A stretch of DNA of 32,000 bases from Nostoc punctiforme PCC 73102 (GTDB lineage Bacteria > Cyanobacteriota > Cyanobacteriia > Cyanobacteriales > Nostocaceae): the NCBI RefSeq assembly GCF_000020025.1, contig NC_010628.1, forward strand, positions 5,940,001 through 5,972,000, read 5' to 3'. A program made the position numbers and the translations under genes. The notes beneath the pieces are model-generated. The model made no database searches and had not been told where the DNA came from. It saw only the letters and a list, made by a program, of their open reading frames with translations. Numbering within the stretch: the stretch's first letter is position 1; the number at the start of each line of letters is the position of its first letter. Below, one piece after another: positions 12,853 through 24,478 of this stretch.

Positions 12853-14169
12853 TTAATTCCGTGGTGTTCGTCGGTTTCTCAAGAAGTCAGGTATATCCAA
12901 TCCAGGTTTTTCTTTTGGTTCTGGAGTTGGAGTTGGAGTTGGAGTTGAACTTGGAGTTGAGGTTGGGGGATTAACTGCGGGTTGTTGTGTTGTTGGTCGC
13001 TTCGAGGTATTAGGTGCTACTCGAACACTAGCTACGCTTTGTTGTACCGCAGCTTGTACTTCACCTGTAAACCCAGTGGCAATTACAGTAATTCTGACCT
13101 CACCTTGGAGTCTGTCATCAATTACAGCCCCAAAAATAATATTGGCGTTGGGATCAACTACTTCATAGATTGCTTCTGCGGCTGCATTCACTTCATGTAA
13201 AGTAAGATCGGTACCGCCTGTAATATTAAATACAACCCCTCTAGCACCTTCAATAGAACATTCTAGTAACGGTGAAGAAATAGCTGCGATCGCAGCTTCT
13301 CTGGCTCTAGATTTTCCAGAACTAACGCCAATTCCCATCAATGCCGATCCTGCATCTGCCATCACAGCCCGGACATCAGCAAAGTCAACATTTACCAAAC
13401 CGGGAATTGTGATGATATCAGAAATACCTTGCACCCCTTGACGCAACACGTCATCTGCATAGCGAAAAGCTTCTTGCACAGGTGTTTGTTCGGGGATCAC
13501 TTCCAGTAGTTTGTTGTTAGGAATAATAATCAGTGTATCTACCCTACTTTTTAAGCCTTCGATCCCTTGTTCGGCTTGGCTGGTACGGCGGCGACCTTCA
13601 AAGACGAATGGACGTGTGACTACCCCAACAGTGAGAGCGCCCATTTCTTTGGCTACTTCTGCTACGATTGGAGCTGCACCAGTCCCAGTACCGCCACCCA
13701 TACCAGCGGTGATAAATACTAGGTCTGCACCCTCTAAAGCTGTAGCAATTTCGTCTCGTGATTCCTCAGCTGCCTTTTGACCGATGGCAGGATTACCACC
13801 TGCTCCTAAGCCCCGCGTTAGCTTTTGTCCAATTTGTAATCTACTGGGAGCGCCTGCCAGAGTTAAAGCTTGGGCATCAGTATTTATTGACCAAAACTCT
13901 ACACCAGAGACATCAGATTCGATCATGCGGTTAACGGCATTACCACCGCCGCCACCGACACCAATCACTTTGATGTTGGCAACCCGACCAGGGACAATCT
14001 CGCCAATGCGGCTATTTTCCGTAAAAATCTTCTTATTATCGTGATTTTGTCCGAAGTTCATCCCAGAGTTATTAAAGGGATTGGTCGAGTTAACTGCCAG
14101 AGAAAACCCAGGCTGTCCCGGAGATTGGGAATTTTTATAGGTGAGTCCTTGGTTATTATCAAGTGTCAT
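12853..14169 (-). CDS. ftsZ: Cell division protein FtsZ, with Nostocales-type N-terminal extension and Thr/Pro-rich C-terminal linker
   Basis: [13 protein letters not shown] and [10 protein letters not shown] tubulin signature. C-terminal DIPDFLRNR peptide. About 60 extra residues precede the [10 protein letters not shown] core, a feature reported for heterocyst-forming cyanobacteria. Confidence 0.95.
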
Positions 14170-15075: not shown

Positions 15076-15930
15076 CTAGATATTTTTAGGGTTTTTGGGA
15101 GTTAATTTTTGGTCTTTTTGGTTCATTTGTACTAAAGGAAAATCGGGATTTTTCAGATCAATATACTCTATTTGACCAGAATCGAGTTTCGCTGATAAAT
15201 GGCGCATTTGGGCGAGTACCTTAATTTGTTCAGACAACAGGGGGCCTGGAACGCCAAGATGCACATTTCCTAGTTCTGTTTTCAAAATTAAATTCGCTGG
15301 ATTTTGGCAATCAATTTCCACTACTTTCACAGTACTTTGGCTGATAGCTTGATGAATATGAGCCCAGTTGAGACAGTATTGTTTGGGCGAGCCAATTACT
15401 CTGAGATTGGGTAATTTCCTAGTGGGATTCAGTGATGTGTATTTTTCTAAAGGTATCCAGGCCCCACTTGCATCTAGTAAGCCCAGTGTGACTTTTTTAT
15501 TGCCAGTACCCTGATTTGCCCCACTTGCTGTTTGAGTCATTGCGACAGGGACTCGTTCTTGGATTTCGATGTTTAATCCGGGAGGAAACAGGCGACGTCT
15601 CACGATCGCTTGAGCAATAGTTGGTTGTTTTTTCAAAGAGTTTGCGATCGCTTCTGGTTCAATCCGCCACAAAGATTGGGGATAAGATAGCACTAATAGA
15701 GATTGAGCTGTCTCATCTGACAGTAATTGATTACCTGATTTCATCACTACTTGTTTGGGAGTTTTTAACACCCATACTGGTTGAACTGCTACCCACAGCA
15801 ATCCACCCGCCAAACCGGTAATGGCAAAGGTTCGCCAAATAGCTTGAATAATTCTCATCTGCCGTCGCCGACGTAATTTTTTACGACGCTGGGCAAGATC
15901 CGTGCGGGAAACTGATATTATGCCAGCCAT
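15076..15930 (-). CDS. ftsQ: Cell division protein FtsQ/DivIB-like (N-terminal basic tail, one TM helix, POTRA-like domain)
   Basis: RRKKLRRRRQMR followed by TM segment AIWRTFAITGLAGGLLWVAV, then V.GN..LS...I and E.V.R.P patterns of POTRA/FtsQ. Same strand as and upstream of ftsZ. Confidence 0.8.
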   Translation of the reverse strand: MAGIISVSRTDLAQRRKKLRRRRQMRIIQAIWRTFAITGLAGGLLWVAVQPVWVLKTPKQVVMKSGNQLLSDETAQSLLVLSYPQSLWRIEPEAIANSLKKQPTIAQAIVRRRLFPPGLNIEIQERVPVAMTQTASGANQGTGNKKVTLGLLDASGAWIPLEKYTSLNPTRKLPNLRVIGSPKQYCLNWAHIHQAISQSTVKVVEIDCQNPANLILKTELGNVHLGVPGPLLSEQIKVLAQMRHLSAKLDSGQIEYIDLKNPDFPLVQMNQKDQKLTPKNPKNI

Positions 15931-16213
15931 TCAAACCCCTTTCTGGTTACAATCCAAATTCCTTGACGCGCTTGTATCATTATTAATTTCAGTAAACACT
16001 GTCGGCATCTGTTAACCGCTCTCCTCAAGACTTTTTTTATTTTTAGTAACACTTTACAGTAAGTACACAACGAACGTAGTCTCTAGTCATCCTTCCTATT
16101 AAAGTTTCCGGTGTCCATTCTTAACTCACTGTTGTATTTTTGACAAGGGACATAAAACATTTTTTCTTTAAAGATTACAAAATCTTAATTTAAATATTTC
16201 TGATTTTGTTTTA

Positions 16214-16242
16214 TTGACAAATAGAATGTGAAGTGATAAATA
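16214..16242 (+). promoter_or_regulatory. Sigma-70-like promoter candidate upstream of the ATPase/STAND gene pair
   Basis: TTGACA (16214-16219), 17-nt spacer, TAAATA (16237-16242). Lies ~380 nt upstream of ATG 16622 in a 690-bp AT-rich intergenic region. Sequence match only. Confidence 0.25.
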
Positions 16243-16621
16243 AGTCTTCCTTTATCTATGTATAGATTGCTATAATTCATACTAGTCATGTCTCATCAAC
16301 TATACAAACAGGGAATAATATAATCGAGTAGCCTTTTTTACTGATTAACTCCGTCATCAAGGTTTGTGTCAGGTTAAAGAAAAGCTATGAGATTGTCAAA
16401 ACCTCAATAGTAGGTGTAAAAAGGACAGATATGTTTAAGGTTATTAGGGTCAATTAAATCTCTATCATACTACTGACAGTAATCCTGTAATAAGTGCTGT
16501 CTTTTGCAAGACACTACCAACTTGCAAATCTATTGCGTGCCTATATCAAAGTTAGAGATTGTTTGTATAAAAAATACGATTAACTGCATCTACCCACGCG
16601 TCTACATACACCTATACATAC

Positions 16622-17953
16622 ATGAAAACGACATTCAATTTGTCACGTTTTTATAAAGCATGTAACCCAAGCTACACGCTTAATATAAGCAACGTGCTAG
16701 ATCGCCAGTATTACATAGATTTTGCTGATGTCCGTGGTTGTAAGATTGTCGAAGAATTGCAACGGACTATAGTTCGGATTTCTCCTGATGAGCCAACCTG
16801 TCAGTTATTTACGGGTCACATTGGCTGCGGTAAATCAACGGAATTGCAGCGCCTGAAAACAGAACTAGAATTGGCAGGATTTCATGTGGTTTATTTTGAG
16901 TCCAGTCAAGACTTAGACATGGCGGATATTGATATCAGCGATATTTTGCTGAGTGTAGCCCGTCAAGTCAGTGCCAGTTTAGAAGGCATTAACATCAAAC
17001 TCAAAGGTGGTTACTTTACCAATTTGTTTAAAGAAGTAGGCGATTTTTTACAAAGCCCCATAGAGCTTTCTGGACAAGCAGAATTATCCTTAGGTATTGC
17101 CAAAATTACCGCCAAAACCAAAGATAGTACCCAGATGCGGAATCAACTGAGGCAATATTTGGAACCACGTACCAATAGTATTTTGCAAGCGATTAACGAA
17201 GAAATTTTAGAAAGGGCTGTTGAACAATTAAAGCTGCGGGGTCAAAAAGGACTGGTAGTGATCGTAGATAATTTGGATCGAGTCGATATGCGTCCCTTAG
17301 CATCAGGGCGATCGCAACCAGAATATCTCTTTATCGACCGAGGCGAACAGCTACGCCGACTCAAATGCCACCTAGTTTACACCATTCCTCTAACGTTAAT
17401 TTTCTCTAATGAGTATGAGACATTAAAAAATCGCTTGGGGGGAGGGATTGCACCAAAAGTACTACCAATGGTATTGGTGCGGCAAAGAGATGGCAGTGAT
17501 TACGAACCAGGGATGTCACTAGTACGCCAGTTAGTTTTAGCAAGAGCTTTTCCAGAAGTTTCTTTGAATGAAAGGCTTTTATTAATTACAGAATTATTCG
17601 ATCATTCCCAAACCTTGGATCGGATATGTCGAGTTAGCGGTGGCCACATTCGCAACTTATTGGGTTTACTTTATAGCTGCCTGCAACGACAAGATCCACC
17701 TTTTTCTAGAGAATGCTTAGAAGCTGTGATTAAAGACTACCGCGACGATCTGCTATTAGCTATTGATGAATCCCAGTGGGAATTATTGTTTGAAGTAGTG
17801 CAACAACAGAGAGTTAAAGGTGAGTCTGACTATCAAAGCTTACTACGAAGCATGTATTTGTTTGAATATCGTGACCCTCTGGGGCGCTGGTTTGGTATCA
17901 GTCCAGCCCTAGCAGAAACAGAAAAAGTTTTAGCTTGGCAACAAAAAAAGTAA
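16622..17953 (+). CDS. Stand-alone P-loop ATPase (AAA/STAND-like core plus helical C-terminal region), function unknown (443 aa)
   Basis: Walker A GHIGCGKST (aa 65-73, nt 16814-16840). Walker B-like LVVIVDNLD (D216, nt 17267). Arg-rich helical C-terminal half. No repeat or enzymatic domain recognisable. Confidence 0.8.
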   Translation: MKTTFNLSRFYKACNPSYTLNISNVLDRQYYIDFADVRGCKIVEELQRTIVRISPDEPTCQLFTGHIGCGKSTELQRLKTELELAGFHVVYFESSQDLDMADIDISDILLSVARQVSASLEGINIKLKGGYFTNLFKEVGDFLQSPIELSGQAELSLGIAKITAKTKDSTQMRNQLRQYLEPRTNSILQAINEEILERAVEQLKLRGQKGLVVIVDNLDRVDMRPLASGRSQPEYLFIDRGEQLRRLKCHLVYTIPLTLIFSNEYETLKNRLGGGIAPKVLPMVLVRQRDGSDYEPGMSLVRQLVLARAFPEVSLNERLLLITELFDHSQTLDRICRVSGGHIRNLLGLLYSCLQRQDPPFSRECLEAVIKDYRDDLLLAIDESQWELLFEVVQQQRVKGESDYQSLLRSMYLFEYRDPLGRWFGISPALAETEKVLAWQQKK

Positions 17954-17954
17954 T

Positions 17955-18135
17955 AGTGCTGGGTAAGTTAATAGTCATTAGTCCTTTGTCCTTTGCCATT
18001 GGACTAATTACTCATGTCTATGCCCAATACTTCTCTACGGAAGGCTGCGCCCTAAGCGTAGCTATGCCGCAGGCTTTACGGCTTCTCTACAAGACGCTAC
18101 GCGAATGCTCAGTACAAATGTCCCATGTCAAATGC
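17955..18135. repeat. Dispersed intergenic repeat (copy B) filling the spacer between the two NTPase genes
   Basis: Shares CCAATACTTCTCT (18024-18036) and AGACGCTACGCG (18092-18103) with copy A. GTCCTTTGTCCTTTG at ~17980 is the inverse of the GACAAAGGACAAA tail of copy A. Confidence 0.55.
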
Positions 18136-18145
18136 TCAATAAAAA

Positions 18146-21100
18146 ATGACTACTGACAAGCAGCTACACGTTTACACAAAAGAAAATCAGCATTCCTTGC
18201 AAAGACTGATGAGAGCGATCGCACTTTCTGAAGGTCAATTTGCCCTAATTTTAGTTCGGTGTAACTATGGGCAATTACGTGAACAAATGTTAGAAAATAT
18301 TCGCTCCATCACCAAAGATATCAATATCAGAGAAATTGTCCTCAATTCATCAACAACTTCCTTACACAACACAATAGTCTCAGAACTATCCTTAGATAAT
18401 CCCGCTGTCCTCACAGACTCTTTGCCAGCTGCTGTTATGGTTTTTGGTATTGAGTCAGCAATCGACCTAGAAAACTTGCTTACAGGCATTAACCAAGCGC
18501 GAGATATCTATGCCGCAACTTTTCCATTCCCAGTAGTGTTGTGGCTACAAGATGAAGTTGCATCATTGTTGTCCAGATTAGCACCTGATTTTAAAAGTTG
18601 GGCTGCAACCACGATTAAATTTGAAATGGCAAAAGCAGATTTGATTGCTTTGATCCACCAAGAAGCAGAATCTCTATTTGCCAAAGTTTTAGAAGCAGGT
18701 GCTGAAACATTTTTATCTAATGCTTCCCTAGATTTAGATCCGAAGTCTCAACACCGCCATGAAATAGAATCAGCCCGTAATGATTTGCTGCGCCTATATG
18801 GTATTCAATTAACACCAGGATTAGAAGCTAGTTTAGAATTTGTGTTAGGACGAGATAAATATGCCAACGATCAAATTAATGGTGCTTTAGGCAATTATCA
18901 AAGAAGCCTAGCATTATGGCAGCAGGAAACGAAGAGAGTAGCTGAGTTGGAGAGTAATTCTTCTTTACCTCTCTCATGTCCTCACCCTACTCCTCCCTCG
19001 CCTTTACTCAAGCAAGCAATAGTACTATTCCACCTGGGACTGTGTTATCACCGCATGGCAGACTTACACCACAATAGTAATAGTCGGTATTGTGAACATG
19101 CTCTCTTGTGGTTTCAACAATGCTTGGACGTATTGGAGGAGGTACAAAGAGAAGACTTAGTGGCTAAATTTATTTTGCCTGCTTGTGAAATGCTGCAACG
19201 TTTACAAGCTTGGGACGACTTAAAAAAATTAGCTCAAAAGTCATTACTTATACATAAAATCTATGGAACTCCTGCACAAATTGCTCAAAATTATGGTTTT
19301 TTGGCAAATGTGGCAGTTTCAGAGTCGAATTGGGTACTAGCTCATGAATTAGCGAATGCGGCACTTTCTATTTCCGAAGAAGCAACAGAAGTTTCTCTGC
19401 GAGATGCTTTGCGAACACGACGACAAGAAAGTTGGCATCTTCTGTTGCTTGCACGTACACAGCGACATCTAGGTGAATCAGAAGAAGCGATCAATAACCT
19501 GGAATGGGCGAGGGTAGTTTGTGAGCTACAACATCAGCCATCACTGTATTTAGAGATATTAGAGGAACTGCGATCACTTTACTTTTTTGAGCGTCATAAC
19601 TATACAGAAGCCTTTAAACTCAAGCAAGAAAAAATTCAGATAGAACATCAGTATGGATTTCGTGCCTTCATTGGGGCAAGTCAATTACAGCCGCAACGAT
19701 CTAGAATTAACCCAGTATTGGAACCTCAAAAAATACCGTTTATTCCTGAAGGAGTTGCCCAAGAAATATCAGCTTCAGGACGACAGCAAGATGTCAATCG
19801 TTTGATTGAAAGAATTAGTCGTGCTGACTATAAACTTACAGTAATTTATGGTCCATCGGGCGTAGGTAAAAGTTCAATTCTCAAAGCTGGTTTAGTACCA
19901 GCCCTGACAGGAAAAGTTATCGGAGAACGCATTCCTATACCTATTGTTTTGTCTGTTTATACTGATTGGCTCACAGTCTTAATCAGCAGTCTCAACCAAG
20001 CGTTGGCATACACAGGAATATCAGTTAATTCTGACTCTACATCCAGTATACTGCTAGAAAAAATTCGTTTAGCAACCGAGCGCAATTATACAATAATTCT
20101 CATATTAGACCAGTTTGAAGAATTATTTTTTATTAGCAATCCTCCTACACAAAGAATTGAATTTTATCAATTATTTAGTGGGTGTTTAAATATTTCATTT
20201 GTAAAAATTATCCTTTCATTAAGAGAAGATTACTTACATCATTTATTAGAATTTGAACGTTTGAGCCAAAAAAATAGTATTGGACTATATGATTTAGGTG
20301 TAATTAATAAAAATATTCTCGATAAGGACATTCGCTACTATTTAGGAAAATTCTCTAGCCAGGATGCTAAAGCCATAATTCAAAGTCTTACTCAACGTTC
20401 TCATTATGAACTAAGTGATGAATTAATTAACCGATTAGTCCAGGATTTGACAGGAGAACTAGATGAAGTACATCCAATTGAATTACAAATAGTTGGCGCT
20501 CAACTACAAATAGAAAATATTACTACCCTTGGAGAATACAAGCTTTGCGGTGGCTCGGCAAAATTGGTTGAACGCTGGCTAGGGGAAGTGATCGAAGACT
20601 GCGGCCCGGAGAATGAAGAGTTAAGTTGGAAATTATTATTTGAGTTAACTGATGAGAAAGGGACGCGACCGTTAAAAAGTAAAGCTGATTTAGCGGCTGC
20701 ATTAGTTAATAACCATGATATAGATACAATATCAAGCTTTGACATAGTTGGGGAACTGATTTTAGAAATATTGGTGGGTTCAGGTTTGGTGTTGCGAGTT
20801 AGAGAGGAATTAGGCGATCGCTACCAGCTAGTTCATGATTATTTAGTTGAACCAATTCGCCAAAAAAACAACTATGGTATGCTCGCCGAGTTTGAAAAAA
20901 TCAAACTTGAAAAAATTAGAGCAGAAGTAGCCCAACAACTGAGTCAAAAGCAACTCAATTTGGTGTTGCAACGCCGACTGCGAGAAGCACGGTTTGTAGG
21001 CGCAATGCTGGCAATCATGGGGGGAACAATAGCAGCATTATGGTGGCAAGCTGACTTGCAAAAAACAGCAGCAATTCACCAAACTCTGCGAGCTGAACGC

Positions 21101-23197
21101 AGTGAAACCAACTTGAGGATTAGTGGAATCACGGCTGCTAGCGAAGCTCTATTTGCGTCTAATAAAGAGTTTGATGCTTTATTAGAAAGTTTGCGAGCTT
21201 GGAGAGAACTAAAACAGGCAGATGGAGTGCAACCAGATACCCGAATGCGGGTGGTAACAGCCCTGCAACAGGCGGTTTATGGGGTAACAGAAGTCAACCG
21301 CTTAGAAGGACACACTGATATTGTCTGGGGAGTAACTTTCAGCCCAGATGGTCAAACCCTAGCATCAGGTAGCCGCGATCGGACTGTGAAAATTTGGCAT
21401 CCTGATGGTACTTTACTTCAAACCCTCAAAGGTCACACTGATGCTGTTACCTCTGTAAGCTTCAGCCCAGATGGTCAAACCCTAGCGTCCGCCAGCCTCG
21501 ACAAAACAGTACAAATCTGGAATAAAAACCCGATTACAGGTGAATTTGATCTCAAGCCATATAAAACCCTGAGAGGACATAAAGATTGGGTTTATAGCGT
21601 TAATTTCAGCCCTGATGGTGAGTTGTTAGCTACTGCCAGTAAGGATACAACCATAAAACTCTGGCGCAAAGACGGTACATTAGTAAAAATCCTGAGAGGA
21701 CATCGAGGGTGGGTTAACTGGGTAAACTTTAGTCCCGATGGTCAATTAATCGCCTCGTCCAGCGATGACAAGACAGTGAAAATCTGGCGACGGGATGGTA
21801 GCCTGGTTACAACTTTGCAGGGACATCAGCAGGGTGTGACTGTAGCTGTTTTCAGCCCCGACGGTAAATTTTTAGCGTCAGCAGGTCGAGACAAGACAGT
21901 GAAACTTTGGCGGCGCGAGAATAACAACACTAAAGACAGTTTTGACTTTCGTCTTTACAAAAATTTACGGCAGCATAGCAGTACAGTATGGAGTGTGAGC
22001 TTTAGTTCCGATAGTAAAAAGTTAGCTTCCGCAGGTGAAGACAATACCATAAACCTCTGGAGTGTAACTGGTACTTTACTCAAAACCTTCAAAGGACACA
22101 GTGATGCTGTTGTTACTATCGCTTTCAGTCCGAATAACAAATTGCTGGCTTCAGGAAGTTTCGACAAAAGCGTGAAACTATGGAGTTTAAATGCCCCAAC
22201 ACCGCCTACTCTTCAAGGGCATCAAGATCGAGTTTTGAGCGTTACTTGGAGTCCCAACGGTCAGATGCTGGCTTCTGGTAGTAGCGATCGCACTGTAAAA
22301 CTCTGGAAGAAATACACTAGTAATGGCGAGTTCAAAACTCGACTTTACAAAACTTTAGTAGGGCATACAAGTAAAGTTCCTAGTGTCAGTTTTGACCCCA
22401 AGGGTAAAATGCTGGCTTCAGGAAGTTATGACAAAACTGTGAAACTTTGGCGGCTTGACGGTACTTTAATCATGACTCTTCACGGACATCGCGATAGTGT
22501 GATGAGCGTGAATTTCAGCCCCGATGGTCAGTTTCTGGCATCAGCTAGCAAAGATAAAACCGTGAAGCTTTGGAACCGTCAAGGTAAGTTACTCAAAACC
22601 TTAATGGGGCATCAGGGTTGGGTAAATAGCGTAAATTTCAGCCCTGATAGTCAGATTTTAGCCTCTGCCAGTGATGACCAAACTGTAAAACTGTGGAACC
22701 GTGAAGGCAAATTGCTCAAAACTTTTTCGCCCCATGACAGTTGGGTGTTAGGTGTCAGCTTTAGTCCCACTGATGAGTTGCTGGCTTCTGCCAGTTGGGA
22801 TAACACAGTAAAACTGTGGCGACGGGATGGTACGTTGTTAAAAACCCTATTAAAAGGGTATAGCGATAGCGTCAACGCTGTAACTTTCAGTCCCAATGGT
22901 GAATTGCTGGCCGCCGCCAGTTGGGATAGTACAGTAAAACTTTGGAGTCATGAAGGTAAATTAATTAAAAGTCTGAATGGGCATCGTGCCCCAGTGTTAA
23001 GTGTCAGTTTTAGCCCAGATGGTCAAACACTAGCATCAGCTAGTGATGACAACACGATAATTCTGTGGAATTTAAACCTTGACGATCTGCTTGTTCGTGG
23101 TTGCGACTGGGTGGGTGATTATCTCAAGCACAACCGTAATCTTGAGGAGCGCGATCGCTTTCTTTGTAATGGCATACCCACTAAAAACTCTTTTTAA
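18146..23197 (+). CDS. Giant STAND-type NTPase: N-terminal alpha/beta domain lacking a P-loop, TPR-like helical region, P-loop NTPase, hydrophobic helix, 14 WD40 repeats (1683 aa)
   Basis: Walker A GPSGVGKSS (aa 569-577, nt 19850-19876). Walker B ILILDQFEELF (D655, nt 20108). Hydrophobic FVGAMLAIMGGTIAALWW (aa 950-967). 14 units of GH.D.V..V.FSPDG..LAS.S.D.TVKLW from aa 1053 to ~1645. Confidence 0.9.
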   Translation: MTTDKQLHVYTKENQHSLQRLMRAIALSEGQFALILVRCNYGQLREQMLENIRSITKDINIREIVLNSSTTSLHNTIVSELSLDNPAVLTDSLPAAVMVFGIESAIDLENLLTGINQARDIYAATFPFPVVLWLQDEVASLLSRLAPDFKSWAATTIKFEMAKADLIALIHQEAESLFAKVLEAGAETFLSNASLDLDPKSQHRHEIESARNDLLRLYGIQLTPGLEASLEFVLGRDKYANDQINGALGNYQRSLALWQQETKRVAELESNSSLPLSCPHPTPPSPLLKQAIVLFHLGLCYHRMADLHHNSNSRYCEHALLWFQQCLDVLEEVQREDLVAKFILPACEMLQRLQAWDDLKKLAQKSLLIHKIYGTPAQIAQNYGFLANVAVSESNWVLAHELANAALSISEEATEVSLRDALRTRRQESWHLLLLARTQRHLGESEEAINNLEWARVVCELQHQPSLYLEILEELRSLYFFERHNYTEAFKLKQEKIQIEHQYGFRAFIGASQLQPQRSRINPVLEPQKIPFIPEGVAQEISASGRQQDVNRLIERISRADYKLTVIYGPSGVGKSSILKAGLVPALTGKVIGERIPIPIVLSVYTDWLTVLISSLNQALAYTGISVNSDSTSSILLEKIRLATERNYTIILILDQFEELFFISNPPTQRIEFYQLFSGCLNISFVKIILSLREDYLHHLLEFERLSQKNSIGLYDLGVINKNILDKDIRYYLGKFSSQDAKAIIQSLTQRSHYELSDELINRLVQDLTGELDEVHPIELQIVGAQLQIENITTLGEYKLCGGSAKLVERWLGEVIEDCGPENEELSWKLLFELTDEKGTRPLKSKADLAAALVNNHDIDTISSFDIVGELILEILVGSGLVLRVREELGDRYQLVHDYLVEPIRQKNNYGMLAEFEKIKLEKIRAEVAQQLSQKQLNLVLQRRLREARFVGAMLAIMGGTIAALWWQADLQKTAAIHQTLRAERSETNLRISGITAASEALFASNKEFDALLESLRAWRELKQADGVQPDTRMRVVTALQQAVYGVTEVNRLEGHTDIVWGVTFSPDGQTLASGSRDRTVKIWHPDGTLLQTLKGHTDAVTSVSFSPDGQTLASASLDKTVQIWNKNPITGEFDLKPYKTLRGHKDWVYSVNFSPDGELLATASKDTTIKLWRKDGTLVKILRGHRGWVNWVNFSPDGQLIASSSDDKTVKIWRRDGSLVTTLQGHQQGVTVAVFSPDGKFLASAGRDKTVKLWRRENNNTKDSFDFRLYKNLRQHSSTVWSVSFSSDSKKLASAGEDNTINLWSVTGTLLKTFKGHSDAVVTIAFSPNNKLLASGSFDKSVKLWSLNAPTPPTLQGHQDRVLSVTWSPNGQMLASGSSDRTVKLWKKYTSNGEFKTRLYKTLVGHTSKVPSVSFDPKGKMLASGSYDKTVKLWRLDGTLIMTLHGHRDSVMSVNFSPDGQFLASASKDKTVKLWNRQGKLLKTLMGHQGWVNSVNFSPDSQILASASDDQTVKLWNREGKLLKTFSPHDSWVLGVSFSPTDELLASASWDNTVKLWRRDGTLLKTLLKGYSDSVNAVTFSPNGELLAAASWDSTVKLWSHEGKLIKSLNGHRAPVLSVSFSPDGQTLASASDDNTIILWNLNLDDLLVRGCDWVGDYLKHNRNLEERDRFLCNGIPTKNSF
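21302..23080 (+). repeat. Coding tandem array: 14 WD40 units (~123-150 bp period), enough for two 7-bladed propellers
   Basis: Repeat units counted in the translation. At DNA level, an identical 26-mer TTCAGCCCAGATGGTCAAACCCTAGC occurs at 21338-21363 and 21461-21486, with a near-copy at ~23009-23035. Confidence 0.85.
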
Positions 23198-23297: not shown

Positions 23298-23648
23298 TTA
23301 ATCAGCAAAGGAGCGATCGCTCTCTAAAACTTCACGGCTATTTTCTGCGGCAGCCTCTTGTGGCAAATTCGCTAGAAAAGCTTGTAGTCTCATACGCTCG
23401 ATATAAGGCCAGCCTCCCTCAGACTCAATATCTTTTAGGAGTGAGTAAAGTTGCCGACGGTTAACAGGCAAACTCTCTTGAAAAACCCCATCTCGGATCT
23501 CTCTGTGTAACTGTTCCAATTGCCTAAGCAAAGCCAAAAGAGCTACAGTCTCACTTTCACAACCCTGCACAGCATCGTACACCACAGTTGTGATCGCTTG
23601 CAGTTTACAGGACAACTCCCCTGATTCCAGATTTTTGTTATGGTTCAT
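23298..23648 (-). CDS. Hypothetical helical protein (116 aa from ATG 23648; the ORF extends to a TTG at 23681)
   Basis: Clean ORF convergent with the WD40 gene. Sequence LLALLRQLEQLHREIRDGVF...GGWPYIERMRLQAFL looks like a genuine folded helical protein. No motif I can name. Confidence 0.55.
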   Translation of the reverse strand: MNHNKNLESGELSCKLQAITTVVYDAVQGCESETVALLALLRQLEQLHREIRDGVFQESLPVNRRQLYSLLKDIESEGGWPYIERMRLQAFLANLPQEAAAENSREVLESDRSFAD

Positions 23649-24478
23649 GCCAACTTTTCCGTATAAATGAGGCCAACTCAAATTTACCGGAGATTTTTAA
23701 TTTTCCCTAGTTTGCCAGTACTTACTCTAGACATTGAGCCAACAAAATGAAGCTCCTGTAGGCTTTTAGATGGTTTTTTGCTAGATTCACCGCGTTTGCT
23801 CTTCCCTGCACTTACCTAAGTAAGGGTTGAATATAACTAGATTTGTATCTTTATTAAAAGCAATTGCGATCGCTCCTAAAAGAGCGTAGTAACCTTTAGC
23901 ATAGCCTCCACATCAGCTAGATGCGATCGGGACGAGACTTTGTTAATTAAGAGTACTTTGATTTTGAGTTAAAAAAAATCGTATGATCTGGCTAATTTAC
24001 CCATCAAACAATGGGCTGTATGTAGTAGCGTCACATACATGATACAAAAAGACTTGGGCGACGCTGCTTTTGCAATTGGCAAAAGCAAAGTGCAAAGCAG
24101 ACAACTCTCTTCGCACTTTTTGAGGCAAGCACTTATGCTGCTCTGTGTAGCGCTTACTCATCCACCCGCCCAACTCTAACAAATGCCACCAACAGTAAAA
24201 CTGCTGGTTTTTTGCTCCCTAGTTACACACATCCAAAAAGGATACAGTGTGCTACTTATTCTGGGGTTTACTCCCCAAGCTCAAGAGAACGACACGTTTA
24301 ACTACGTTTAGCAGAGAAAATTTTGACTGGCGACTTCCAGCCTATACGCCCTGACATTTGTTTCAATTCTGGTAATCAGAGCAACGCAGTGTCACTTCGA
24401 AGATGGCTTTTCGTCAGAAATCAAAGCTTCGATGCAGTTTTACAACTTAGATATTAATTTTTGAGATTGAGGTTGACC

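Follow-up and report, generated by a model that had tools for sequence, protein, structure and literature searches.

A conserved pair of STAND-type ATPase genes beside ftsQ and ftsZ in Nostoc punctiforme: a predicted split switch with core-gene behaviour

The 32,000-nucleotide stretch of Nostoc punctiforme PCC 73102 DNA analysed here (assembly GCF_000020025.1, contig NC_010628.1, positions 5,940,001 to 5,972,000; hereafter the window) carries two consecutive same-strand genes encoding a 443-aa ATPase (gene 1) and a 1683-aa giant (gene 2), each with its own P-loop. From a comparison with homologous loci we read the first of these proteins, together with an arm at the N-terminus of the second, as a STAND (signal transduction ATPase with numerous domains) protein split between two genes; the arm consists of an alpha/beta N-terminal domain (NTD) and a tetratricopeptide repeat (TPR)-like solenoid. 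At the Nostoc locus this split STAND is fused to a second complete one, composed of an nSTAND1 NTPase, a probable transmembrane (TM) helix and WD40 repeats. Our overall reading, which we hold with modest confidence, is that of a conserved operon encoding a composite two-ATPase switch of the STAND type, resembling NOD-like receptors (NLRs), with a core signalling role. The locus had previously been described from its letters and open reading frames (ORFs), without database searches (the sequence-only reading), and the coordinates, lengths and four nucleotide-binding motifs given there for the two ORFs were all reproduced. The features of the pair, in window positions, are as follows.

16622–17953, + strand: gene 1, 443 aa, ATG start, AAA+/STAND-like P-loop ATPase (ORF and translation)
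16814–16840, + strand: gene 1 Walker A, GHIGCGKST, aa 65–73, K71 (motif position)
17252–17278, + strand: gene 1 Walker B, LVVIVDNLD, aa 211–219, D216 and D219 (motif position)
17954–18145, no strand: spacer of 192 bp between gene 1 and gene 2 (sequence and motif scans)
18146–23197, + strand: gene 2, 1683 aa, ATG start, in the order NTD, TPR-like solenoid, nSTAND1, probable TM helix, 14 WD40 repeats
18179–18625, + strand: NTD, aa 12–160, five-stranded alpha/beta domain without family assignment (AlphaFold2 (AF2), pLDDT about 85–92)
18632–19654, + strand: TPR-like alpha-solenoid, aa 163–503 (AF2 helices, pLDDT mostly >90)
19778–20848, + strand: nSTAND1 NTPase module, aa 545–901 (Pfam PF20703)
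19850–19876, + strand: gene 2 Walker A, GPSGVGKSS, aa 569–577, K575 (motif position)
20096–20128, + strand: gene 2 Walker B, ILILDQFEELF, aa 651–661 (motif position)
20987–21046, + strand: probable single TM helix, aa 948–967, ARFVGAMLAIMGGTIAALWW, with RRLREAR just before it (hydropathy)
21308–23104, + strand: 14 WD40 repeats (Pfam WD40, 14 stretches, E 1e-177)

The conserved core of the system appears to be the ATPase together with the NTD-TPR arm, a conclusion that is well supported by the comparison of loci. In all ten genome contexts compared (the window, Fischerella, Scytonema, a paralogous pair in Nostoc UHCC 0302, Lyngbya, Moorena, Leptolyngbya FACHB-261, a 'Sericytochromatia' metagenome-assembled genome (MAG), Dapis and a cyanobacterial MAG) a standalone gene 1 homologue was followed directly by an nSTAND1-WD40 giant of 1547–1875 aa, and in two of the ten the genes were 2 bp apart or overlapping. 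Metagenome contigs were also scanned with distant family members, ~30–40% identical to gene 1, as seeds, and the 80 loci obtained were searched with local profile hidden Markov models (HMMs) for the NTD, the ATPase family and the nSTAND1 region. In 64 of the 68 loci whose contigs extended far enough downstream, the ORF that followed on the same strand began with an NTD, and the median gap between the ATPase stop and the NTD match was 27.5 bp. The earlier proposal that the two genes form a functional unit, and should co-occur in other genomes, is borne out by these counts. The NTD-bearing partners in the metagenome loci comprised 24 NTD-helical-nSTAND1 giants of 1100–2675 aa and ~27 proteins of 400–730 aa with only the NTD and classical TPR repeats; clustering of the neighbours revealed no conserved third gene with either class, only antisense shadow ORFs and ftsQ and ftsZ.

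The same two modules are also found on single polypeptides. The protein P0332 (611 aa) consists of a complete gene-1-type ATPase followed by the NTD (hhalign 98.7%, E 4.6e-16; hmmsearch 6.7e-17), and P0338 of an ATPase, an NTD-like region and TPR repeats. The NTD match of P0338 is weak (hhalign 21%) and BLASTP of aa 1–560 of the giant against it gave nothing; the fusion argument therefore rests on P0332. Gene-1-type ATPases fused to a second STAND-like NTPase were found in P0193, P0212 and P0234, while P0221 and P0270, which contain NTD and gene 1 pieces, were set aside as oddly ordered or truncated and possibly assembly chimeras. When ATPase and NTD distance matrices were compared over 57 pairs they were strongly correlated (r = 0.89, Mantel p <= 0.001), and we therefore consider that the two are inherited together and presumably co-evolving. 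Three forms of the system occur across bacteria, namely a minimal form of two genes, a single fused protein (ATPase-NTD, or ATPase-NTD-like-TPR) and the Nostoc-type giant, and it is very probable that the two Nostoc genes are a functional pair in which gene 1 works with the NTD arm.

Some individual members of the system merit description. Of the minimal NTD-TPR partners, one (L105, 2833–4431) has a C-terminal end that by eye resembles a helix-turn-helix of the sigma-70 region 4 type, which would recall MalT-type regulators, and another (L103, 9200–10948) has C-terminal hydrophobic, TM-like segments, again judged by eye; together they hint that the outputs of minimal systems vary between transcription and the membrane. 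The second, paralogous pair of Nostoc sp. UHCC 0302 (CP151099.1, L087, 10001–17062) encodes proteins of 432 aa and 1748 aa with a 122-aa antisense ORF between the two genes, and is flanked by ParE/ParD and PemK toxin-antitoxin genes; the same genome also holds a gene 1 orthologue of 94% identity (P0002).

The N-terminal 560 residues of the giant, which the sequence-only reading left unassigned, do not look like a hidden effector. The AF2 model of aa 1–560 (41 homologues; pLDDT 84.6, pTM 0.77) and Foldseek instead point to the NTD and the TPR solenoid, followed in the model by a disordered linker. The near-invariant residues of the NTD include R38-C39-N40, G101, N116, R119, P129, W133, D136 and P147-D148-F149. 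It had no Pfam match, scans of 22 members included, and a profile search of PDB sequences found no significant relative; the possibilities that the NTD is a decayed version of one of the two NTPases encoded here, or that it is a TIR domain, were rejected at the sequence level (hhalign probability <=0.8%). In Foldseek searches of the PDB the solenoid was matched best by the TPR domains of LGN/Pins and kinesin light chain (E ~2e-7), the STAND-TPR structure 6mfv was among the matches to aa 1–560, and Pfam gave a weak TPR_12 match in the N-terminal region of the giant. The description of gene 1 as an ATPase without a sensor thus holds for the protein itself, which has no repeats, but not for the pair, since a candidate sensor arm in trans is present at the N-terminus of the giant.

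The NTPase of the giant, scanned alone as aa 541–1040, exceeded the nSTAND1 (PF20703) cut-off of 27.1 bits with a score of 111.1 (E 1.3e-31, model positions 18–341 of 379), which confirms the earlier suggestion that its DQFEE-type Walker B is that of a 'novel STAND' clade; NB-ARC scored 13 bits in gene 2 (E 0.059), short of its cut-off of 23.5. The consensus of 41 homologues reads HGxSGVGKSS ... LIFDQFEEFFF, and both Walker motifs are intact in gene 2, implying by their sequence a probably active NTPase. The hydrophobic helix and the 14 WD40 repeats previously seen in the giant were both recovered, and 14 repeats suffice for two seven-bladed propellers. The helix, with a mean Kyte-Doolittle hydropathy over 19 residues of 1.53, is borderline and has a positively charged N-terminal flank. 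An equivalent hydrophobic segment with a positive N-flank is present in seven of eight homologous giants, and a hydrophobic segment follows nSTAND1 in six of eight further metagenomic giants as judged by eye, not computed. The positive-inside flank suggests an N-in orientation, in which case the propellers would be periplasmic.

As to gene 1, residues G68-C69-G70-K71-S72-T73 and D216-N217-L218-D219-R220 are invariant in an alignment of 42 homologues, as is an 'SGGHxRxL' motif among gene 1 homologues. The AF2 model (pLDDT 83.4, pTM 0.85) has an AAA+ core in which a long, hydrophilic and helical insert separates Walker A from Walker B; a lid and, at the C-terminus, a winged helix complete it. 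Pfam matches were weak and generic (KAP_NTPase, AAA_22, ATPase_2 and nSTAND5): KAP_NTPase (PF07693) passed its cut-off of 20 bits with a score of 26.4 (E 5e-6) in a partial match to model positions 4–165 of 293, nSTAND5 scored 21.9 bits, below its Pfam threshold of 34, and NCBIfam and PADLOC added nothing specific. Profile HMMs, named earlier as the means of placing the two proteins in families, have therefore done so in part, with gene 2 assigned to nSTAND1 and gene 1 passing the KAP_NTPase threshold in a partial match but the NTD left without a match. Gene 1 is labelled 'KAP family' by NCBI in some genomes. KAP NTPases reportedly carry TM helices inserted within the P-loop domain (Aravind et al. 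2004). This classical hallmark is not found in gene 1, which has no TM segment (the 19-residue Kyte-Doolittle value peaks at 1.06 over the full protein and at 0.96 within the insert, aa 95–209), and neither Pfam nor the AF2 model indicated repeats or a sensor or effector fusion on gene 1 itself.

Foldseek comparison of the gene 1 model with the PDB placed SSO1545 (2fna) at the top, followed by ORC/Cdc6 subunits, TnsC, Apaf-1, CED-4, NLRP3, RdrA and BrxC, with E ~1e-5 and TM-scores of ~0.3–0.5, that for 2fna being only 0.39–0.47. A check for the STAND-type core of NBD, helical domain and winged helix, as known from AP-ATPase and NACHT NODs (Leipe et al. 2004), found Apaf-1, CED-4 and NLRP3 matched equally with ORC/Cdc6, TnsC and SSO1545 (TM-score ~0.3–0.4). 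The model therefore places gene 1, as a prediction, in the ORC/Cdc6-STAND part of AAA+ without a close solved relative, and it fits no named STAND clade. The family is a large one (2549 clusters at E <= 1e-3 among the 50%-identity representatives searched); among the 120 matches listed, identity within the Nostocales is 82–97%, and both Trichormus (Anabaena) variabilis ATCC 29413 and one Nostoc punctiforme strain have an orthologue.

Certain family members carry additional modules. In P0194 and P0197 a gene-1-type ATPase, 50–55% identical to gene 1, follows a SAV_2336 N-terminal module of the vWA type that is ~480 aa long (NF041121; E 1e-154 and E 9.5e-141, respectively), and P0207 has the same layout as judged by length and sequence. 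We take this module to resemble the vWA component of MoxR-vWA ternary conflict systems (VMAP/iSTAND; PMC7159879), so that the ATPase family recurs in such an architecture; MoxR or vWA genes were found neither among the window neighbours nor in the homologous genome loci inspected. P0222 has a C-terminal TIR domain (TIR_2, E 1.5e-33), the one clear case of an effector fusion observed among the family members, and the C-terminal sequence of P0228 is similar to it by eye.

The absence of a recognisable effector, as originally stated, was upheld: searches of both proteins with Pfam, NCBIfam and PADLOC were negative for catalytic domains (nuclease, protease, TIR, kinase or others) and for effectors or effector-associated adaptors, and the genes around the pair are ftsQ, ftsZ, psbO, one for a sigma factor and a small ORF without annotation. 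PADLOC-DB v2 gave only P-loop-level matches for gene 1, none of them significant (PDC-S20, 24.5 bits; mad8, 20.7 bits), and for gene 2 only HEAT-ARM_XIII, a match to the WD40 repeats, and P-loop matches of 18–21 residues; distant pairs were likewise without a significant PADLOC match. No relatives were present in 2.9 M viral contigs. No description of the NTD, of the pairing of the ATPase with NTD-TPR or of the ftsQZ-linked pair was found in Pfam, NCBIfam, PADLOC or the open-access literature searched, and the latter yielded no study of the pair, including under all3855/all3856.

The pair was expected from its surroundings to be a resident chromosomal module in a core-gene setting, behind an AT-rich leader, and this is the picture that has emerged. 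It is flanked by ftsQ-ftsZ on one side and psbO (Pfam MSP) on the other, the remaining window neighbours including gshB and a sigma factor (Pfam), and the relevant upstream features are these.

12853–14169, - strand: ftsZ (Pfam Tubulin/FtsZ_C)
15076–15930, - strand: ftsQ (Pfam POTRA_1), divergent from the pair
15931–16621, no strand: divergent ftsQ/gene 1 intergenic region, 691 bp, AT-rich (32.7% GC)

A Pfam scan of ten neighbouring ORFs returned housekeeping-type families only, the GC content of both genes (41.3–41.4%) is close to that of the window (40.7%), and there are no tRNA genes in the window. The order ftsZ<-ftsQ<- ->gene 1->gene 2 was conserved in 75 of 75 evaluable Nostoc loci. The same ftsQ-ftsZ linkage was found in Fischerella and Scytonema and, outside the Nostocales, in Lyngbya, Moorena, Dapis and one more cyanobacterial MAG, where other genes lie downstream; it also occurs in five metagenome loci in which the ATPase is 64–85% identical to gene 1. 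Pairs whose ATPase is 47–64% identical to gene 1 are located elsewhere, not by ftsQ-ftsZ. The scan of genome contigs, which gave only near-identical Nostoc loci, served for synteny and for dN/dS, not for breadth; the breadth of the ftsQZ-linked pair rests on seven genomes or MAGs, the 75 Nostoc loci and five metagenome contigs.

Gene 1 is as conserved as FtsZ. It shares 86% of its residues with the orthologue from Fischerella and 84% with that from Scytonema, compared with 86% and 83% for FtsZ, 79% and 77% for PsbO and 65% and 57% for FtsQ. The five regions of the giant are collinear with, and 64–79% identical to, those of the same orthologues, with 70–74% for the WD40 array. Estimates of dN/dS (Nei-Gojobori, five comparisons) were in the following ranges.

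Gene 1: 0.03–0.07
ftsZ: 0.03–0.08
Giant, every region: 0.08–0.19
Giant, WD40 only: 0.09–0.16
ftsQ: 0.16–0.24

Orthologous WD40 repeats are 72–90% identical, against a mean of 49.5% between repeats within the protein, and the array has therefore been neither homogenised nor diversified. The synteny across Nostocales and Oscillatoriales and the housekeeping-like dN/dS agree with residence, as opposed to recent acquisition on an island. The antiphage leaning of the sequence-only reading, on the other hand, finds no backing in the way this pair has evolved: selection is at the level of FtsZ, the position is fixed, the WD40 repeats are individually conserved, viral copies are absent and PADLOC gave no significant match.

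The spacer between the two genes contains neither a terminator-like nor a + strand promoter-like site in consensus scans, whose matches were overall at chance level; this is consistent with co-transcription, and we regard gene 1 and gene 2 as a candidate single operon. The spacer contains a short, AT-rich hairpin (17973–18012) with 12-nt arms that are 92% complementary and no T run, and its length varies between ~93 and 192 bp among Nostoc strains (from coordinates), which suggests a small insertion. In the 691-bp ftsQ/gene 1 region promoter-like hexamers did not exceed shuffle expectation, and a GTA-N8-TAC (NtcA-box-like) sequence lies at 16328–16341, although across the window the motif is no commoner than chance would allow (11 matches, 6.2 expected). 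An ORF of 127 aa (23298–23681, - strand) without a Pfam match separates gene 2 from psbO; similar-sized same-strand ORFs occupy this slot in Fischerella (114 aa, L084, 16774–17118) and Scytonema (125 aa, L086, 16604–16981), and it is probably a real conserved small gene. Further away, a cobalamin riboswitch aptamer (RF00174, 38.2 bits against a gathering threshold of 31.5) lies at 1–123 on the - strand, cut by the window edge. Among the loci compared, three with MAG labels of 'Acetobacteraceae' or 'Chroococcales' (L034, L078 and L080) contain gene 1 copies 95–97% identical to that of Nostoc, and L080 also has Nostoc-type ftsZ, ftsQ and psbO neighbours; the likeliest explanation is that Nostoc contigs were misbinned. 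Genes of mobile or defence type border the conserved block of ftsZ-ftsQ and the pair in Oscillatoriales: an IS605 OrfB/Cas12f-like TnpB next to ftsZ in Lyngbya (L088, 6004–7233, - strand), an RRXRR-HNH gene downstream of the giant in Dapis (L172, 16966–18411, + strand) and dndB-E-type phosphorothioation genes upstream in a MAG (L173, 1–5930).

When compared with described systems, we rate the pair as STAND/NLR-like switches in a split and tandem configuration with core-gene behaviour. Gene 2 belongs by its HMM match to the nSTAND1 clade (PF20703; Kaur, Iyer, Burroughs & Aravind 2021, eLife, PMC8195603), with which it shares the NTPase, the DQFEE-type Walker B and a repeat array behind them. 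However, that clade was defined in predicted counter-invader systems with effector-associated domains (EADs), death-like domains, peptidases and TIR (PMC8195603), whereas gene 2 has no effector or adaptor, its NTD-TPR N-terminus is the partner of another ATPase with a gene of its own, and it evolves slowly, as a core gene in conserved synteny. The same report includes a predicted two-gene nSTAND2 counter-invader system associated with GT4 glycosyltransferase effectors, which likewise consists of two adjacent genes each encoding a STAND-type NTPase; its NTPases are of other clades, and its description mentions no NTD or split-sensor logic (PMC8195603). The C-terminal half of gene 2, a nucleotide-binding oligomerisation domain (NOD) followed by ~14 WD40 blades in two propellers, has the layout of Apaf-1, and the gene 1 model matches both the Apaf-1 and the CED-4 structures; unlike these proteins, the Nostoc pair has no CARD or death-fold adaptor, has a probable TM helix between NOD and propellers and includes a second ATPase. 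Gene 1 and the NTD-TPR arm reproduce the NOD-arm-TPR sensor order of MalT and PH0952 (PDB 6mfv), but in Nostoc the NOD is on one polypeptide and the sensor on another, an alpha/beta domain without a family makes up the 'arm', and there is no DNA-binding domain. With Avs and bacterial NACHT proteins the pair shares an ATPase core and a C-terminal repeat sensor, and ligand-induced oligomerisation would be expected of it, yet it lacks an N-terminal effector and any significant PADLOC match, and it is under strong purifying selection at a fixed position where those systems have a patchy, island-borne distribution. Finally, the large Walker A-Walker B insert of gene 1 recalls KAP (PF07693) and the archaeal ATPase_2 family (PF01637; SSO1545, 2fna), from which it differs in being hydrophilic and helical, without TM helices.

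STAND proteins (Leipe et al. 2004) such as Apaf-1 and MalT respond to a ligand by nucleotide exchange and oligomerisation, and by analogy with them we consider, with moderate confidence, that the pair is an ATP-driven oligomeric switch. Our current working model is that the gene 1 ATPase docks on the NTD, so that the TPR solenoid would serve as its sensor or regulatory arm in trans. A ligand or partner bound to the TPR array, the WD40 array or both would alter the nucleotide state of the two ATPases by permitting exchange, upon which both NODs would oligomerise into a membrane-anchored hetero-oligomer or platform. Because no enzymatic effector is present, assembly itself would be the output, through scaffolding or recruitment by the repeat arrays at the membrane. 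On account of the FtsZ-like conservation and the lasting divergent linkage to ftsQ-ftsZ across Nostocales and Oscillatoriales, we judge the pair to be a core signalling module of filamentous cyanobacteria, possibly concerned with division, septum or envelope, rather than a mobile abortive infection system. A housekeeping or division-linked role is the weakest step of this argument, being drawn from positional evidence, and we put it forward tentatively. A more specific version, in which an ancient STAND pair conserved at the level of FtsZ forms a checkpoint or signalling hub for division or filament integrity in filamentous cyanobacteria, and not an immune receptor, is speculative and in our view unlikely to hold as it stands; there the ATPase and the NTD-TPR arm would be cytoplasmic, the signal-anchor-like helix might carry the WD40 propellers into the periplasm, and the pair would couple the state of the septum or envelope to the divisome encoded next door. 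Independently of that version, the NTD would be a new adaptor domain marking a widespread bacterial split-STAND system (ATPase and NTD-TPR) not described before.

Several points weigh against the composite switch with a core role. Orphan ATPases were present in four of the 68 metagenome loci, and two NTD-TPR-nSTAND1 proteins of ~900 aa without WD40 repeats (P0141 and P0165) have no adjoining gene 1 homologue. The docking of gene 1 on the NTD is inferred from gene order, fusion and co-inheritance, the fold of the NTD matches no assigned family, and the switch and the role are predictions from sequence and models. The helix is borderline (1.53) and missing from homologues L090, L125 and L169, so that a periplasmic position of the WD40 propellers is only a tentative prediction. 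The ftsQ-ftsZ link is positional, and paralogous pairs exist elsewhere, one of them between toxin-antitoxin genes. Finally, relatives of both ATPases are found in conflict architectures (TIR and SAV_2336/vWA fusions for gene 1, predicted counter-invader systems for nSTAND1), which argue for an immune origin or role.

The principal alternative is an NLR-like antiphage or abortive-infection system in which the WD40 repeats, the TPR repeats or both would sense a phage protein and the ATPases would oligomerise to act through an unconventional effector, for instance by a clustering of the single TM helices that perturbs the membrane, or through an unlinked effector in trans. The definition of nSTAND1 in predicted counter-invader systems and the two-gene nSTAND2 precedent (PMC8195603) favour it, as do the fusions of gene-1-type ATPases to TIR_2 (P0222) and to the SAV_2336/vWA-type module, the existence of several paralogous pairs, including that of Nostoc UHCC 0302 between ParDE and PemK, and the fact that all named sources among the matches listed are filamentous multicellular cyanobacteria, a habitat enriched in such systems. 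However, a dN/dS of 0.03–0.19 in every domain, with the presumed sensor repeats included, WD40 repeats that are individually conserved and collinear between orthologues, and a syntenic position by ftsQ-ftsZ that is fixed across orders weigh against such a function. No effector domain was found, the PADLOC matches are insignificant and confined to the P-loop, the viral contigs contain no copies and the minimal system of ATPase and NTD-TPR has no conserved third gene, and we consider a defence function of this kind rather unlikely.

Alternatively, gene 1 might be no signalling switch but an AAA+ assembly or remodelling factor, a loader or chaperone comparable to ORC/Cdc6, TnsC or MoxR, which would use ATP to load, unfold or reset the giant through the NTD and would thereby set the threshold for nSTAND1 oligomerisation. 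Its structural neighbours do include the loaders or matchmakers ORC/Cdc6 and TnsC, it has no sensor of any kind, thresholding by chaperones and co-chaperones is a theme of related cyanobacterial systems (PMC7159879), and gene 1 is far more conserved than the giant, as would be expected of an enzyme acting on a variable client. In the minimal systems, however, the partner is only NTD-TPR, and together with the fused ATPase-NTD(-TPR) proteins these resemble a normal STAND divided between two genes more than an enzyme and its client; moreover, the C-terminal winged helix and the matches to Apaf-1, CED-4 and NLRP3 fit a STAND NOD, so that a dedicated loader seems decidedly improbable. That the two genes are unrelated neighbours, adjacent through local synteny, could be entertained within Nostoc, where the whole region is syntenic and adjacency is uninformative, but adjacency is kept where all other neighbours differ and in paralogous pairs at other loci, and this explanation is effectively refuted by the 64 of 68 distant metagenome loci, the fusion proteins and the correlation of r = 0.89.

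Bacterial STAND/NLR ATPases are now read almost by default as antiviral death switches. The Nostoc pair has the full NLR grammar of two NODs, TPR and WD40 repeats and a membrane helix, and yet it has no effector, is under FtsZ-like selection and has kept its place beside ftsQ-ftsZ across cyanobacterial orders. Whatever its role, this study identifies an unannotated domain, the NTD, and a widespread split STAND that are not captured by Pfam, NCBIfam or PADLOC models, and so provides a new family for annotators and a minimal ATPase and NTD-TPR system for experimenters. Direct tests should be feasible, as the orthologue-bearing strains have close relatives that are standard genetic models. If a cellular role were true, the pair would represent an NLR-type machine in the housekeeping signalling of a multicellular prokaryote, and would bear on how the immune and developmental functions of NLRs diverged.

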